From: a virus | Taxonomy: Duplodnaviria > Heunggongvirae > Uroviricota > Caudoviricetes | IMG/VR virus record: IMGVR_UViG_3300042564_004235 | Direction: 5' to 3' (one strand) | DNA length: 10,159 nt | In this document: positions 2,954 through 9,540 of the stretch, one piece after another | How the letters are laid out: each line of letters starts with the position of its first letter | Position numbering within the stretch: position 1 is the first letter of the stretch | The notes under the pieces: generated by a model | What the model was told of the DNA's origin: nothing | What the model saw: the letters and a program-made list of their open reading frames with translations, nothing else | Database searches by the model: none | Translations under genes and position numbers: made by a program

Positions 2954-4465
2954 ATGGAGTTTAAAAAACGTGATTTATTGGTAGAAGACAATAGTGAAGA
3001 GGGAATCTTTAAAAAAGTGATGTCTAAATTAAAAGACGTTAAAGATAGGGCGCAATCCGAAATAAAAGAAACAAGAGCGTTAGTTAGAATATTAACTCAC
3101 GCAGTAAAATCATACGCAAAAGATAGAGAATTTGATTTAAACAAGGAAGATAAAGATTTTATCAAAGGACAATCCGCCGATGTTATAAGAACATTAGTTT
3201 TAACTATTGTTGCTATAATACCAATACCAATTCCATTAACACCATTTCTAATTATATTTGGAAAAAAAATCGGAATAGATTTAACACCAAAAGAACAAGT
3301 GATACCTGATAAAGGAAAACCAAAAAAAGATAAGATAGAAGAATCAAAAAAATTAAACATTATAATATCGGAAGAACAATATAATATTTTAAACGAAGTT
3401 GTTAAACCAAAAAATATTATATTATCGCTTTGTAAAAGACAAAAAGAACGAAACATATATTGTGATTTATATGATTTTTATTTAACTCTTGATCCTGAAA
3501 ATACACAACCGACTTTAGAGGCCACAATTGAAGAATTAAACGACTATTTTAAATACAAAAAAGTTGGTATGTTTCCAATACTTGTTAAATTAGCTCTTCA
3601 GAATAAAGAAAAAACTGTATCATATTTAAAACTGATTTCTGAATTTATAGATAGAAAACAATTTGATAAGACAGAAACAAAAAGAATAATAAACAAACAA
3701 AGAAACAGGACGGATATTTCAGTTAAAGATGTTGAACAATTGGCTAAAGATGCCAGAAGATTAGAACATCAAAAATATGAAGAAAGGTTTCACGGAGACT
3801 ATTTCAAAAAGAAATCAACATTTTTAAGACTAAATTATTCTTGTGATGATGATGTTAAAGAGAGTTTGTTCAATATTCTTACAAGAGTTGGCTCAAAAGA
3901 AAGGACAATAGATGAAGTTTTTGAACAAGTAAAAAGATGTATTTTACAAACATTTGATAAAGGAATATATTATGTCAAGGCGGATTTAGAATCCACATCA
4001 AATTTTGTTTGTAGTGGAGAAACAATTTTTAATGCCGGCAGCAACTTTGAGGTTAAAAAAATGGATCCATTTGTTGATAGTTATTTATCTGAATTTTTAT
4101 CAATCTTCAAAGAAACAGAAAAAATTCAATTTAAAGGAGAATACATAGGAATTTATAATGAGTTAATTCAAAGATTATATGAATGGCTTATTTCTTCAGA
4201 AGAGGCTAATGCGTATATAGAAAAGGTGAAGTCTCAAATAACAGGAATCATTTACGAAAATGATATAATAGTTCCAATACAATATATAGATTTATACTGG
4301 TCTAATAAAGGTCAAAGAGGTTGTGACGAAAAAAGATTGTCAATAAGATTTAAAATAAAAAATGATGTGGGGAGTGAAATACAAACATATAGATTTATTA
4401 ATAGTAACGAATTATCGCTCGTAACTAAAAAAGTCTCAACATCACAAAAAATAGTTTGCCCATGA
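2954..4465 (+). CDS. 503-aa fusion protein: LETM1-like hydrophobic domain, internal copy of the leader tag, possible PD-(D/E)xK nuclease-like C-terminal region
   Basis: aa 36-112 (EIKETRALVRIL...LNKEDKDFIKGQSADVIRTLVLTIVAIIPIPIPLTPFLII) resembles, from memory, the LETM1-related segment. aa 134-148 LNIIISEEQYNILNE matches the tag. KAD344...E366-V-K368 fits a D...ExK motif. The stop TGA overlaps the next ATG (ATGA). Confidence 0.7.
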   Translation: MEFKKRDLLVEDNSEEGIFKKVMSKLKDVKDRAQSEIKETRALVRILTHAVKSYAKDREFDLNKEDKDFIKGQSADVIRTLVLTIVAIIPIPIPLTPFLIIFGKKIGIDLTPKEQVIPDKGKPKKDKIEESKKLNIIISEEQYNILNEVVKPKNIILSLCKRQKERNIYCDLYDFYLTLDPENTQPTLEATIEELNDYFKYKKVGMFPILVKLALQNKEKTVSYLKLISEFIDRKQFDKTETKRIINKQRNRTDISVKDVEQLAKDARRLEHQKYEERFHGDYFKKKSTFLRLNYSCDDDVKESLFNILTRVGSKERTIDEVFEQVKRCILQTFDKGIYYVKADLESTSNFVCSGETIFNAGSNFEVKKMDPFVDSYLSEFLSIFKETEKIQFKGEYIGIYNELIQRLYEWLISSEEANAYIEKVKSQITGIIYENDIIVPIQYIDLYWSNKGQRGCDEKRLSIRFKIKNDVGSEIQTYRFINSNELSLVTKKVSTSQKIVCP

Positions 4466-5430
4466 AAATAATATTAACTGAAACACAATATAAAAATTTG
4501 ATGGAGGGATTAGCTGATGATGATGTATTCAGAGACACCATTAAAGGTTATGAATCTACAGTTACGGATTCAAGTGGACAACATTATACTTTTGATGATA
4601 AAGACCCAAAAAATCCGAAGACTTTTGTTAAATCATCTGCAGATAAAAAAGGTGGAACATTAACAATTGGTTGGGGACATACAGGGGAAACCGCAAAACC
4701 AGGTAAAAAAATATCAAATAGTAATGCTGAAGAATTATTAACAAGTGATATAACAAAAGAAGAAAATAAGGCAAAAACAATTTTTCCTAAGTATACTTCA
4801 TATCCACTATATGTACAAAGAGCGTTAGTAAATGCCGTTTATAGGGGAGAAGCGAAAAGTACATATGAATGGGTTAAGTCGGTAAATTCGGGTAAATGGA
4901 TTACCGCGGCAAAAGAATATTTAGAAGGTTGGGACATTGATTTTTCTCAAGCAAATAATCCAAAATATAAAGGGGGCGTTGCCGACAGAATGGTTACTAA
5001 CCAAAAAGCCTTTGAAAAATACGGAGAAGAATTAAAAAAAGGTAAAACAACCACGACCACCACAAAAAAAGAAACCACCACAACTGAATTAACATATTCA
5101 ACAGAAGGTATAAGTTATATAATGTTAGAAAACGAATTGGCGAGTTTAACTGCCGGAAAGAAATACAAAGTTCACCGATTCCCTAAAGATAGTTTTTTTG
5201 ATTTTAGATTAGAAGTTGGTCCATACCCACCATCAAAAAAAGAAGGTAGGTATTTAGTTTTTTTTAGAAATGGTGTTATTAAATGGTATAATGGAAATGA
5301 ATTCTCAGGAAGAGGTAGTTGGGGATATAATATAGATCAGAATAAATGGAGAATAATAGGTAAAAATGGAGAAATAAGTTTATCTACCGCTATCAATAAT
5401 CCCGTTAATAATTTTGCAAACGTAGCATAA
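4462..5430 (+). CDS. Tagged GH24 (T4-type phage lysozyme) muramidase with Thr-rich linker and unknown C-terminal domain
   Basis: ATG 4462 (ATGA overlap) is preferred over TTG 4456 because it begins the tag MKIILTETQYKNLME. Lysozyme motifs: IKGYE31, YTFD45D46, T68IGWGH, AEELLTSD, ALVNAVY, VNSGKWITAAKEYL. Linker TTTTTTKKETTTTE. Confidence 0.8.
   Translation: MKIILTETQYKNLMEGLADDDVFRDTIKGYESTVTDSSGQHYTFDDKDPKNPKTFVKSSADKKGGTLTIGWGHTGETAKPGKKISNSNAEELLTSDITKEENKAKTIFPKYTSYPLYVQRALVNAVYRGEAKSTYEWVKSVNSGKWITAAKEYLEGWDIDFSQANNPKYKGGVADRMVTNQKAFEKYGEELKKGKTTTTTTKKETTTTELTYSTEGISYIMLENELASLTAGKKYKVHRFPKDSFFDFRLEVGPYPPSKKEGRYLVFFRNGVIKWYNGNEFSGRGSWGYNIDQNKWRIIGKNGEISLSTAINNPVNNFANVA
5047..5088 (+). 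repeat. Low-complexity Thr-codon run encoding an interdomain linker
   Basis: aca acc acg acc acc aca aaa aaa gaa acc acc aca act gaa encodes TTTTTTKKETTTTE. Confidence 0.7.
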
Positions 5431-6000
5431 ATGAAAGTAATACTAACTGAAGCACAATATAGAAGACTCACTGAGGAAAACCTTAGAGAGTTTTTGTATT
5501 CATTTTGGGACAACCAAAAAAGACAAGGTGAAGACCCATCTTTAGATGACATTATATTTCAGGTTACCAACATTATAAAAGGTAGTAGCGATGACCACAG
5601 AACAATTAGACCAATATGGTATGAATATAATGGAGGGTATGATGTGTTACTAAAAAAAATAGATGAAGAATTTTTAAATAAAGAGTTTCATTTAGAGGGT
5701 AGTGAAAATCTTAAAATGGATTTCAAAATTGATGGTATTGAATCATATGGTGAAGACGTATATGGTGGAATGGTTGACATTATTTGTCAAATATTGGATG
5801 GAACTGTTGATGGAAACTTTTATAATCAAGAAACTGAAGAGATGGAAATGGTTCCTAACATGTATATTGGAGATCAATACGCCGAATTAGAATACGATAC
5901 AGGAGATTTTGAAACTTTTTTAAGAGACGAGATACAAAGTTTTTTGGATCCCATAATGGAAAGGTATGGAATACCTTATCATCTTGAAATGCTTGTATAA
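5431..6000 (+). CDS. Tagged acidic hypothetical protein (189 aa), probable distant paralogue of 6000-6551
   Basis: Starts MKVILTEAQYRRLTE immediately after the upstream TAA. About 42 D/E versus about 16 K/R by manual count. Confidence 0.85.
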   Translation: MKVILTEAQYRRLTEENLREFLYSFWDNQKRQGEDPSLDDIIFQVTNIIKGSSDDHRTIRPIWYEYNGGYDVLLKKIDEEFLNKEFHLEGSENLKMDFKIDGIESYGEDVYGGMVDIICQILDGTVDGNFYNQETEEMEMVPNMYIGDQYAELEYDTGDFETFLRDEIQSFLDPIMERYGIPYHLEMLV

Positions 6001-6551
6001 TGAAAATAATAATAACAGAAAGACAGTATAAGATTTTAGAATCACAACAAGACGACGATCGTGTTGCGATGAAAGCACTTCACATTATTTGGCAAGATGA
6101 AATCGATTCAACAGGAGAAATTGATTTTGATCCAAAGATTGTAGATTACATAGGTTATAGACCAAAAGGAGGAGTTCATGAAATGTATAGAGACTTTCTT
6201 GGTGGTTGGGACAATATGGTTGAAAAATCATATGAACTAATGGATAGGACTTTTGATACTATGGATTATGATTTTAGGGGAGGATATGATTTTAGATTCA
6301 CAGTCCAAGGTAATAATGACTATGAAGAAGATAATTCAACATATGTTGATTGTCCAATTAAAAGTGACGGAAAAGTAACATTAATGACAGATGGTGAAAC
6401 ACATTTGTTAAGTGAACTTGAAGAAAATTATGATATGTGGTGGGAAGTTGAAAGTGAGATTAGATCACTGATTGAAGATATTTTATATAAAGAAGTTACA
6501 AAGAAAACAGGAATACTTGTTGAAGTAAATATGTGTTGGATAAAAGAATGA
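6000..6551 (+). CDS. Tagged acidic hypothetical protein (183 aa)
   Basis: Starts MKIIITERQYKILE with a TAATG overlap. About 42 of 183 residues are D/E by manual count. Confidence 0.85.
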   Translation: MKIIITERQYKILESQQDDDRVAMKALHIIWQDEIDSTGEIDFDPKIVDYIGYRPKGGVHEMYRDFLGGWDNMVEKSYELMDRTFDTMDYDFRGGYDFRFTVQGNNDYEEDNSTYVDCPIKSDGKVTLMTDGETHLLSELEENYDMWWEVESEIRSLIEDILYKEVTKKTGILVEVNMCWIKE

Positions 6552-6952
6552 AAATAATAATAACAGAAAGTCAGTATAAAATGTTGTTGGAATCAAATAC
6601 AGATTCCATGCAAAGTCTTATTGACATGGCTTTTGATCAGGTAAAAGAAAATTGTGAAGGTGGGTATTATATTAGATCACATCAAAATCTTATTTGTGAC
6701 CCTGTAGATATGATTGAAGAAATTAAAGTAGTGGACGTATCAAAAGTAACATCTATGGATTATTTTGAAAAAAATAAAATGGATGTTATACACATAAAAG
6801 TTAATTGTTATGTTGACTCAATATACGAATATAACAATTTAGATAACTTTATTTATGAACTACAAGCAGAGGCAAGAAACATTATTGGTGGTAGATTCAT
6901 TACTATAGAAATAGGAGAAATAATTAATAAAAGAAAAGACTTCAATTGGTAA
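6548..6952 (+). CDS. Tagged hypothetical protein (134 aa)
   Basis: Start reassigned from 6533 to ATG 6548 (ATGA overlap), which begins the tag MKIIITESQYKMLLE. Confidence 0.85.
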   Translation: MKIIITESQYKMLLESNTDSMQSLIDMAFDQVKENCEGGYYIRSHQNLICDPVDMIEEIKVVDVSKVTSMDYFEKNKMDVIHIKVNCYVDSIYEYNNLDNFIYELQAEARNIIGGRFITIEIGEIINKRKDFNW

Positions 6953-7326
6953 TGAAAATAATAATAACAGAATATCAGTATAACTTACTTCAAGAAACCT
7001 TTGGTAGGGATAGGTTTGATGCTGAATATGCCGACGAATACCCAAAGTATAAAGGTATGTTTATTAACTTAATTAAAATGGAAATCACCGCATCGGGACA
7101 GACGGAAGATTCTATATTATTGGGTGATTCGGATGGTAAAATTTTGGTTAGTTATAGGAAACCTAGTCGTACTCTTTATTATGATTATAATTGGGGTGAA
7201 GATATTGAAAAGTTAATGCCTTGGCATATTTATAATAGACATTTTAAATATGCATTATTTGATTTTTTTAAATCAATTTTTCCTGATGCTGCAATAAAAG
7301 AAGTAAGAGGTGCTCACGTAGCGTAA
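6952..7326 (+). CDS. Tagged hypothetical protein (124 aa)
   Basis: Start reassigned from TTG 6946 to ATG 6952 (TAATG overlap), which begins the tag MKIIITEYQYNLLQE. Confidence 0.85.
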   Translation: MKIIITEYQYNLLQETFGRDRFDAEYADEYPKYKGMFINLIKMEITASGQTEDSILLGDSDGKILVSYRKPSRTLYYDYNWGEDIEKLMPWHIYNRHFKYALFDFFKSIFPDAAIKEVRGAHVA

Positions 7327-7334
7327 TATTAAAT

Positions 7335-7946
7335 ATGAAAATAATAATAACAGAAGAACAATTTAATAAGTTACAAGAAAGTGACAAGGATTTTAACAAA
7401 ACAAAAACTCTTGTCAACTCTATGTTTGAACAAGGATATAGTATTGATGACATACTTAAATTTACTGGTTTAGATAAAGATGTTGTTATAGTGTTATTTT
7501 ATGACCGTGAAATTATAAAAGACCAAATAGAAGAAAGTATAGATAAATATGAATACTTATATCACTTACTTTGGGATGGTGAATTATTAAATAAAACACA
7601 CAAATACGAAGACGGATCAATTGCTATTATTGGGTTTGATCGTTTTTCGGGGTCAATTCATTTTAATTATTTGTCAGAAGGTTATGAACTAAGAGGTTAT
7701 GCGACGTTATTTTGGGAGTATGACCCAAAGTTACCAATAGATATTAGTCAGTTTTTTGATATTGATGATACTGAATATGATGTGGATGGTTCTGAACACT
7801 CAAGTGTCGATTTAAGAACAGATGAAAAATTTAATAATATTAGAACATTAAGACAGTTAGTTGATTATTTTAATAATGATTATTATATTATGTTAAAAGA
7901 AGAATTGGATCCTTTATTAAAAAGATGTATAAAATACTATTTATAA
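7335..7946 (+). CDS. Tagged acidic hypothetical protein (203 aa)
   Basis: Starts MKIIITEEQFNKLQE, 8 nt after the upstream stop. D/E- and Y/F-rich. Confidence 0.85.
   Translation: MKIIITEEQFNKLQESDKDFNKTKTLVNSMFEQGYSIDDILKFTGLDKDVVIVLFYDREIIKDQIEESIDKYEYLYHLLWDGELLNKTHKYEDGSIAIIGFDRFSGSIHFNYLSEGYELRGYATLFWEYDPKLPIDISQFFDIDDTEYDVDGSEHSSVDLRTDEKFNNIRTLRQLVDYFNNDYYIMLKEELDPLLKRCIKYYL
7938..7945 (+). promoter_or_regulatory. TATTTATA motif before ATG 7949; candidate phage-specific promoter
   Basis: TATTTATAACTA here is identical over 12 nt to the minus-strand sequence starting at 10039 upstream of the 40-aa ORF. Confidence 0.4.
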
Positions 7947-8207: not shown

Positions 8208-8522
8208 ATGGAAATAACTACACAAGAATTAGAACAAAAAATACAAAACGGAGAAAAGGTAATAGTAGAGATGTGGGCACCTTGGTGTGGTCCTTGTAGA
8301 ATGTTAAAACCTGTATTTGAAAAAGTTGCTCAAAACAATGATACTGATGTTCAAATGTATACATTAAACATTGATGAAAATAGAGACACTGCTATTAAAT
8401 ACGGAGTGAGAAGTATACCAACAATTAAAGTTTTTGATGGAGGAGAGGTTAAAGAAACCAGAGTTGGTGTGATTGCAGAACAAAGTATTAAAGAATTAGT
8501 TTCAAACCTTTTATTAAATTAA
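8208..8522 (+). CDS. trxA: Thioredoxin
   Basis: 104 aa with the WAPWCGPC active site, the cis-Pro motif VRSIPT and the C-terminal RVG..A. Confidence 0.95.
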   Translation: MEITTQELEQKIQNGEKVIVEMWAPWCGPCRMLKPVFEKVAQNNDTDVQMYTLNIDENRDTAIKYGVRSIPTIKVFDGGEVKETRVGVIAEQSIKELVSNLLLN

Positions 8523-8526
8523 TTAT

Positions 8527-8694
8527 ATGAAAAAACTTTTTGTAACAATAACTTTATTTTGTATTTTAGCATCCTGTAAATCATCTAAAGCAAATTGTGA
8601 AGCATATGGAAACAACACAAATCAAACTGACAAAAATAGAAGTGACGATCCAAGAAATGTGGGCGGCGACTCGACCTATCATACAAAAAAGTAA
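8527..8694 (+). CDS. Small lipoprotein (55 aa; not in ORF track)
   Basis: MKKLFVTITLFCILAS|CKSSKANCEAYGNNTNQTDKNRSDDPRNVGGDSTYHTKK*. It has a basic N-region, a hydrophobic core and the lipobox LAS-C17. ATG is 4 nt after the trxA stop and TAA is at 8692-8694. Confidence 0.75.
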   Translation: MKKLFVTITLFCILASCKSSKANCEAYGNNTNQTDKNRSDDPRNVGGDSTYHTKK

Positions 8695-8749
8695 AAAAGA
8701 ATACTCTCGTAAAGAAAAACATAAGAAAAAGTTTGGAAGTTTAGATTAG
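8606..8749 (+). CDS. Small basic protein (47 aa; not in ORF track) with an ArfA/BrfA-like C-terminal motif
   Basis: METTQIKLTKIEVTIQEMWAATRPIIQKSKKEYSRKEKHKKKFGSLD*. ATG 8606, TAG 8747-8749. Overlaps the lipoprotein gene by 89 nt in another frame. Confidence 0.6.
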   Translation: METTQIKLTKIEVTIQEMWAATRPIIQKSKKEYSRKEKHKKKFGSLD

Positions 8750-8763
8750 ATTACATATCTTTG
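8732..8763 (+). promoter_or_regulatory. Bacteroidota primary-sigma promoter
   Basis: TTTG at 8732-8735, 20-nt spacer, TATCTTTG at 8756-8763, upstream of ATG 8788. Confidence 0.75.
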
Positions 8764-8787
8764 TATCACAAATAAACCGATAAACAT

Positions 8788-9540
8788 ATGATGAACTTAG
8801 AACAACTTAAAAAACAGGCACCTTCAGTATTCGCTACACAAGCGTCACCTTCAGTATCTAACCAATACGTATTCGTCCCTACAATGGATATTTTGGAGAA
8901 CTTCCAAAACGCAGGATGGGAAATTGCATCCGCAAGACAAACAGGTAGAACACAATACGGAGTACATGAAATCCGTTTACGTAACGGAGAATTACCAAAG
9001 GTAGGTGACACGTTGGTTGAAGCAATCATCCGTAACTCTCACAACGGTATGTCAACTCTTAGTGTGAGTGCTGGACTACACCGACTTGTATGTTCAAACG
9101 GACTTACAGTACCAACATCAACGGCAGAGTCATTCAGGGTAAAACACCAAAGATTTGAACTTGACGACGTTAAAAGACTTACAGAGTCATTCGCATCTAA
9201 ACTACCAAAGATTGAGATGTCAGTAAATCGCATGATGGAGAAAGAACTATCTACTGATGAGAAGATTGATTTTTTACGTAAGTCTACAGAGGTGAGATTT
9301 GGTCAAAACAAAGTATTGACGGATTTAGAAATGGTTGGTCTATTAGCACCAAACAGAAAAGAAGACGAGGGGGACGATTTGTGGAGAGTATTAAATGTAG
9401 TACAAGAGAAGTTCGTCAGAGGAGGGGTGGAAATGTCATCACCAAAAGGACGAAGAACTAAACTCAGAGGTCTACAAAACATAATGGCCCTAAACAAAGT
9501 GAATACAAAACTTTGGGAGTTGGCCGAGGAAATGATATAA
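8788..9540 (+). CDS. DUF932/DUF945-family protein (YafZ/YubP-like)
   Basis: Motifs PSVFA..S..Y.F.PT..IL...GW, H.IRLR and NSHNG.S.....AGL.RLVCSNGL match my recollection of the DUF932 family. Confidence 0.8.
   Translation: MMNLEQLKKQAPSVFATQASPSVSNQYVFVPTMDILENFQNAGWEIASARQTGRTQYGVHEIRLRNGELPKVGDTLVEAIIRNSHNGMSTLSVSAGLHRLVCSNGLTVPTSTAESFRVKHQRFELDDVKRLTESFASKLPKIEMSVNRMMEKELSTDEKIDFLRKSTEVRFGQNKVLTDLEMVGLLAPNRKEDEGDDLWRVLNVVQEKFVRGGVEMSSPKGRRTKLRGLQNIMALNKVNTKLWELAEEMI

Follow-up and report, generated by a model that had tools for sequence, protein, structure and literature searches.

What does a small basic peptide contribute to a phage, and is the reading frame that would encode it a gene at all? 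In the window, the whole 10,159-nucleotide stretch of AT-rich phage DNA analysed here, a 47-codon open reading frame (ORF47) lies between a thioredoxin gene and a DUF932 gene. The sequence-only reading had proposed that this frame carries a ribosome-rescue motif resembling those of ArfA and BrfA; its placement of the frame and its 47-residue peptide are exact, as our own translation from 8606 to the stop codon agrees. The features of the locus are as follows:

8208-8522: thioredoxin gene, the upstream neighbour of ORF47 (PF00085, E 1.7e-26)
8527-8694, + strand: lipoprotein-like ORF of 55 residues, MKKLFVTITLFCILASC..., with lipobox LASC, in another frame and sharing 89 nt with ORF47
8606-8749, + strand: ORF47, basic 47-residue peptide METTQIKLTKIEVTIQEMWAATRPIIQKSKKEYSRKEKHKKKFGSLD, from ATG at 8606 to TAG at 8747-8749
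8606-8632, + strand: clade-specific nine-residue N-terminal extension of ORF47, preceding the conserved head
8633-8668, + strand: conserved hydrophobic head, residues 10-21, KIEVTIQEMWAA (family consensus KTIEITIQEIWxA)
8669-8731, + strand: ArfA-like basic tail, residues 22-42, TRPIIQKSKKEYSRKEKHKKK, aligned with ArfA L24-R48 with a three-residue gap at GKG
8717-8722, + strand: Lys38-His39, by alignment only the counterpart of the KH motif of ArfA (K44-H45) and BrfA (K49-H50)
8788-9540: DUF932 gene, the downstream neighbour of ORF47 (PF06067, E 1.2e-25)

ORF47 is a conserved gene under purifying selection

We fetched 80 related IMG/VR loci with the neighbouring DUF932 protein as query and found ORF47 homologues in six of them, among them L001, which has two copies, L002, where the homologue stands without the lipoprotein-like ORF, and L003, L063 and L064, where it is directly upstream of DUF932. 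Homologues at the same position are present in relatives L001, L002, L082-86 and L155-160, and gene callers predict them in the close relatives. A family profile had 855 matches in a set of 5.8 billion proteins, and an exhaustive HMMER search of 1.84 billion cluster representatives returned 181 clusters at 50% identity (E <= 1e-3). Family members are 33-50 residues long (median 46), many of them having 36-40 residues and starting MKTIE; their consensus, MKTIEITIQEIWxATRPxVxK(S/N)KKxY(T/S)RKxKHK, joins a hydrophobic head to a basic tail containing Lys-His. The head columns are conserved across 248 members (T 90%, Q 85%, E 92%, I 84%, W 82%, A 83%), and the KH motif is kept in 229 of the same 248.

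Selection distinguishes the two overlapping frames. In five close relatives, summed over 10 pairwise comparisons that are non-independent and form a small sample, so that the values are descriptive, pN/pS in the ORF47 frame is 0.05 where ORF47 stands alone and 0.23 where it overlaps the lipoprotein-like ORF, whereas in the lipoprotein frame it is 0.52 outside the overlap and 0.90 within it. The ORF47 frame is therefore the one under selection in the shared segment (0.23 versus 0.90). Taken with its homologues in related phage loci and its many clusters, this makes the frame picked out by the sequence-only reading a real, strongly conserved gene under purifying selection.

The overlapping ORF at 8527-8694, which the sequence-only reading had missed, encodes a classical signal peptide, is open in 10 of 11 close relatives and is lost in L002. 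It has a weak PHROG match to the Cor superinfection-exclusion lipoprotein (E 0.027) that covers the signal peptide only. It is probably a real, young, clade-specific overlapping gene whose C-terminal half, with the overlap value given above, is unconstrained or neutral. We rejected a +1 frameshift fusion of this ORF with ORF47 at an A6 run, since most relatives have ORF47 by itself.

The spacer between ORF47 and DUF932 is an insertion hot spot in the relatives. It holds a NUMOD1 homing-endonuclease-like ORF in L002 (2091-2909, - strand), a 218-residue ORF together with a second, 36-residue ORF47 paralogue before DUF932 in L001 (2158-2982), and a 171-residue ORF in L082 and L085 (4206-4721, - strand). 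Elsewhere in the window, the genes of a run at 4456-7946 all start MKIIITExQY.

TAnnTTTG is the -7 promoter consensus of Bacteroidota. The related motif TAnnTTTGTA occurs at 8756-8765, 23 nt upstream of the DUF932 start, and at 2588-2597, 34 nt upstream of the gene at 2631; its count in the window is not above chance. A candidate promoter for ORF47 itself lies inside the lipoprotein-like ORF and reads TAnTTTG, one base short of the Bacteroidota-type sequence, and when we tested this candidate by counting TANNTTTGTA, its number in the window was likewise not above chance.

The basic tail and its likeness to ArfA

ArfA, for which several structures are available (5MDV, 5MGP, 5U4I and 5H5U, cited in PMC8012679), places residues 31-48 in the mRNA tunnel and H21-E30 in the A site; the RF2 sheet gains a strand from Q27-E30, F25 packs on RF2, and residues 1-24, including A18, order and open RF2, with A18 needed for RF2 activation (PMC5378476, PMC8012679). 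ArfA truncated at N47 is active, and ArfA cut after M40 is inactive (PMC5378476, PMC8012679). The KH motif is common to ArfA and BrfA, being Lys49-His50 in the latter, and contacts U534 of 16S rRNA (PMC6881298, PMC8012679).

ArfA is a small peptide, hydrophobic at its N-terminal end and basic in its C-terminal tail, and in this it resembles the members of the ORF47 family. The stretch of E. coli ArfA that the sequence-only reading had quoted is correct, as checked against the annotated arfA of MG1655, and the ORF47 tail matches ArfA at R26, V29, K31, K33-K34, Y39, R41-K42 and K44-H45. To compare whole families we used hhalign, which aligned the family core (248 sequences) with ArfA (66 sequences) over 22 columns with a P value of 4.8e-6 and a probability of 86%; the ArfA profile, made of these 66 sequences and four phage ArfAs, is shallow, because the homologue search gave enterobacterial sequences only and the J2-1 ArfA query retrieved only itself. 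The alignment pairs A21-K42 of ORF47 with L24-R48 of ArfA, leaving a three-residue gap at GKG (family atRpxVxknKK---kYtRKxKHk, ArfA lFrqrvekxkkGkGsYxRKxk).

Controls that preserve composition and destroy order do not reproduce this match. The hhalign score observed was 27.4, whereas 300 column shuffles averaged 8.1 and did not exceed 16.3, and the reversed profile scored 13.4. A family HMM built from 265 members scored E. coli ArfA at 17.4 bits and the ArfA of phage J2-1 at 15.8 bits, and none of 2000 composition-preserving shuffles reached either value (maximum 8.2 for E. coli ArfA). The match is thus far better than that of shuffled Lys-rich peptides, which the sequence-only reading had named as the comparison that might undo it, and because the order-specific controls fall so far below the observed scores, composition alone does not explain it. 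The phage ArfAs of Arash and pf16, in which the KH end is missing, received no score from the family HMM, and the signal is therefore located in K-x-K-K...Y-x-R-K-x-K-H. The KGKGS motif of ArfA is not kept in the family, which has K(S/N)KKxY with GKG absent; every family member extends at least as far past KH as the shortest active ArfA truncation (N47), ORF47 having eight residues beyond the motif. As judged from these alignments and controls, the likeness of the tail to the channel-binding tail of ArfA is specific and non-random.

The likeness stops at the tail. No significant counterpart of the ArfA head (residues 1-24, including A18) was found in the family head by hhalign, whose significant match is confined to the tail, and the one alignment that extended into the head had a probability of 4%; residues 1-12 and the A18 helix of ArfA lack a counterpart in the typical family member, whose head is unrelated and shorter. 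Comparison with the ArfA family PF03889, which the sequence-only reading had put forward as a check, turned out negative: none of 55 members was listed at E <= 10, whereas controls passed the gathering threshold of 25.5 bits (E. coli ArfA at 89.5 bits, phage ArfAs at 29.6-72.5 bits). By these profile scores the ORF47 family is not a member of PF03889. Of the proposed ArfA-like rescue motif, then, the tail stood, through the shuffles, the hhalign match and a link by way of DUF7230 and the J2-1 ArfA, while the head bore no detectable likeness to the RF2-activating part.

That link runs through an uncharacterised family of basic peptides, DUF7230 (PF23876), which at 37-46 residues has the same size and colinear layout as the ORF47 family. 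It was matched colinearly by 48 of 55 members (best E 1e-4), all of them sub-threshold, with scores of 14-23 bits against a gathering score of 27 bits; ORF47 of the window scored 18.0 bits, and the best among all sequences scanned 22.9 bits. The family tail matches profile positions 16-37, and the first 15 residues, with the IEITIQEIW head, are unmatched. With scores below gathering and the head unmatched, the ORF47 family is therefore a sister family of DUF7230 and not a member of it. E. coli ArfA matched DUF7230 with an E value of 0.11.

Phage-borne ArfAs provide the other half of the link. They are known from Pseudoalteromonas phage J2-1 (ATN93434.1), Citromicrobium phage RXM (gp10; PMC8953757), Pseudomonas phage pf16, Salmonella phage Arash and pelagiphage HTVC027P (gp30; PMC12753301), and in J2-1 and RXM they are already annotated as such in GenBank. 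Like ORF47 they are small (47-60 residues) and end at normal stops; unlike the ORF47 family, they pass PF03889 and keep an ArfA-type head (DPLF/SDLF-R-x-R-V-E). The J2-1 protein has the same GKG deletion and spacing as ORF47 (...RVERDKTKYRRKKKHKNR, within the stretch ...FRTRVERDKTKYRRKKKHKNR) and yet passes both PF03889 (41.3 bits) and DUF7230 (28.6 bits). DUF7230 and this GKG-less ArfA together support a tie between the ORF47 family and ArfA at the level of profile matches.

Other libraries added little. NCBIfam gave no match for the family, PHROG matches were weak and fell on phrog_2701, 6310, 18092, 1359 and 20887 (E 1e-3 to 0.1), which like DUF7230 are uncharacterised basic peptides of 37-46 residues, and no Pfam, NCBIfam or PHROG model captures it. 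ArfT and BrfA (B. subtilis YqkK) are small, rescue ribosomes with the help of a release factor and place a basic tail in the mRNA channel; BrfA also has the KH motif in common with ORF47. The BrfA-like spacing that the sequence-only reading had also described did not extend to a sequence relation: PDB-wide HMMER searches with three profiles and two single sequences retrieved neither BrfA nor ArfT, nor ArfA.

We also considered how ORF47 would be expressed. ArfA has an RNase III hairpin and a hydrophobic C-terminus; ORF47 has neither, and it ends at a normal stop. No terminator-like site was found on the + strand within ORF47, whose RNA fold z-score of +1.8 indicates less structure than in shuffles, so that the absence of a nonstop-mRNA design noted in the sequence-only reading is borne out. 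Ending normally and lacking both a hairpin and a hydrophobic C-terminus, ORF47 is therefore not under tmRNA control. ArfT of Francisella, which has 40 residues, acts with RF1 or RF2 and is free of nonstop control (PMC6299226), resembles ORF47 in both size and regulation and so sets a precedent for a short factor with a normal stop. With its KH motif, hydrophobic head and normal stop without a hairpin, ORF47 has a layout closest to a constitutive minimal ArfA or to ArfT.

Distribution of the family

Nearly all family members come from phage-like metagenome contigs. Searches of 50,697 cultured-phage records at the DNA and protein levels, in which a low-complexity filter may mask short Lys-rich matches, found no member, and an earlier scan of contigs with narrower patterns likewise found nothing. 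A scan of prokaryotes with the pattern N[KR]KKYxRKxK, taking one genome per species (185,579), gave 23 loci that are almost all from Bacteroidota, including Flavobacteriales, Crocinitomicaceae, Fluviicola, Sphingobacteriales and Weeksellaceae; these are mostly contigs of metagenome-assembled genomes (MAGs) and may be mis-binned phage. The family is rare in cellular genomes, being matched in two of 301 searched Bacteroidia genomes, and no host rescue role anchors its function. It is thus mainly phage-borne, a gene of uncultured giant phages whose hosts are probably Bacteroidota. ArfA, by contrast, is described as limited to some beta- and gammaproteobacteria.

One isolate genome alone, that of Flavobacterium aciduliphilum DSM 25663, yielded a member (L103, 4001-4117), MKTIQITLQERWAASRATIFKNKKKYSRKTKYKKSHLA, in which KY replaces KH. 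It sits between a SIR2-family gene and SLOG-domain genes, with a promoter-like motif, TAtcTTTG, about 18 nt upstream. On MAG chromosomal contigs of Bacteroidales (L113-L118, 0.3-1 Mb, at about 3900-4100) we also observed proteins of about 60 residues, MKIKKVQLSEKDKRKAY...LDKVTRPKIYKNRKKYTRKGKQK, that carry a TRPxxYKNxKKYTRK tail as in the family on a helical basic head and end at a normal stop; no internal terminator was found in the L118 gene, and these proteins may be a cellular cousin family.

Two giant phages place such a gene among tRNAs. In G336, a 99%-complete phage of 291 kb, a family member is flanked by tRNA-Leu and tRNA-Met within a tRNA island. G337, a relative of 304 kb, has at the syntenic site a 51-residue ORF (L163, 1399-1554, + strand), MKAYDQHKTKRTQVRKDQIEAGFFDGRFVSRVETPKNLYTRKTKHKKLLFN, that adjoins tRNA-Phe, tRNA-Cys and tRNA-Leu and ends in the family tail, ...YTRKTKHKK, behind another head; Pfam gave no match for it. 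This difference at one site suggests, on a comparison of two sequences, that heads may be swapped on a constant tail. Besides these two phages we scanned 26 further loci, of which 23 are mostly from MAGs, and found no tRNA near the gene at any of them. Five related jumbo-phage records were free of any RF-1-domain gene, and any release factor that the peptide might use would therefore be the host's.

Rescue, blocking or generic binding

Our preferred reading, to which we give a probability of roughly 45%, is that ORF47 encodes a stand-alone peptide that is made constitutively and rescues ribosomes in the manner of ArfA, in a giant phage whose hosts are most likely Bacteroidota. The basic tail with its Lys-His would thread into the mRNA entry channel of the 30S subunit, which it could enter only when the channel is empty, as it is once a ribosome has run to the 3' end of an mRNA that is broken or lacks a stop codon and has stalled there. 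The segment around TRPxVxK would then sit in the A site, and the hydrophobic head, IEITIQEIW, would recruit and activate a host release factor that hydrolyses the peptidyl-tRNA, so that the freed ribosome could serve phage mRNAs. What we infer for ORF47 is that it binds ribosomes, recruits a release factor and benefits infection; an anti-defence role is speculation. A predicted complex of the peptide with the post-frameshift part of Flavobacterium aciduliphilum RF2 had a score of 0.00 and counts neither way.

The same tail evidence also fits a peptide that fills the vacant mRNA channel and blocks it instead of releasing the nascent chain, possibly excluding tmRNA-SmpB, parking ribosomes in a hibernation-like state or hindering host initiation as a form of shut-off. 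SmpB, ArfB, ArfA and BrfA compete for this one channel, so that a channel binder would exclude them, and the family head is unlike the RF2-activating part of ArfA. Conservation of the head as strong as that of the tail, however, points to a specific protein partner and not to a mere plug; a plug would moreover harm phage translation as much as the host's, and other phages carry true ArfA homologues, that is, rescue factors. We regard blocking as unlikely.

Of similarly low probability, in our view, is that ORF47 is a basic peptide that binds nucleic acids generically and has nothing to do with the ribosome; it might then act as a chaperone of RNA or DNA or as a regulator, or be packaged, and its ArfA-like motif would have arisen by convergence. 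The significant similarity is limited to about 22 Lys/Arg-rich residues, which could have converged on a motif for binding RNA, and the similar tails of ArfA, BrfA and ArfT are, according to the literature, of independent origin; all family-library matches are sub-threshold, and an AF2 model of the monomer, which says nothing on the bound state, is a single helix spanning residues 15-43 (pLDDT 78), as in many basic helical binders. Against this, shuffled sequences and shuffled columns never came near the observed scores, and the family keeps the spacing R-x3-K-x-K-K ... Y-x-R-K-x-K-H, including a KH whose contact with rRNA is known. That spacing, GKG-less, is identical in a bona fide ArfA, that of J2-1, and one family member is placed in a tRNA island. 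Least probable by a wide margin, and already refuted by the conservation of ORF47 where no overlapping frame exists, is that ORF47 is an accidental frame of a true lipoprotein gene or of a frameshifted fusion: the textbook signal peptide and lipobox, the retention of that frame in close relatives and the A6 run at its stop codon speak for it, but ORF47 homologues occur alone in L002, L003, L063, L064, G336 and hundreds of contigs, and in the overlap it is the ORF47 frame that is constrained.

What is new is a sister family that the libraries do not catalogue, its head conserved but different, together with a link to Bacteroidota phages and a hint of head exchange. Phage ArfA genes are already annotated and published, and the ORF47 family therefore represents a new branch and no new principle. 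More small rescue factors that sequence searches have overlooked are expected (PMC8012679, PMC6881298). A bolder and rather doubtful extension is that the IEITIQEIW head is a new release-factor-recruiting module of Bacteroidota phages, grafted onto a channel tail of the ArfA/DUF7230 type; if true, this would define a class of constitutive rescue factors that are modular and borne by phages, that may differ from ArfA in RF1/RF2 specificity and that act in a phylum where published surveys record no rescue factor dependent on release factors.

Release-factor-dependent rescue factors (ArfA, ArfT and BrfA) are known from few bacterial lineages only, and the family described here supplies about 180 clusters of candidates of 36-48 residues, carried by giant phages of Bacteroidota, in which an ArfA-type tail is combined with a different, equally conserved head. 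If these peptides are functional, phages would routinely provide constitutive ribosome rescue, whose purpose is probably to return to use the ribosomes left stranded when host mRNA is degraded or when defences cut RNA. Rescue factors would then be modular, and a second route to release-factor activation would be open to structural study.
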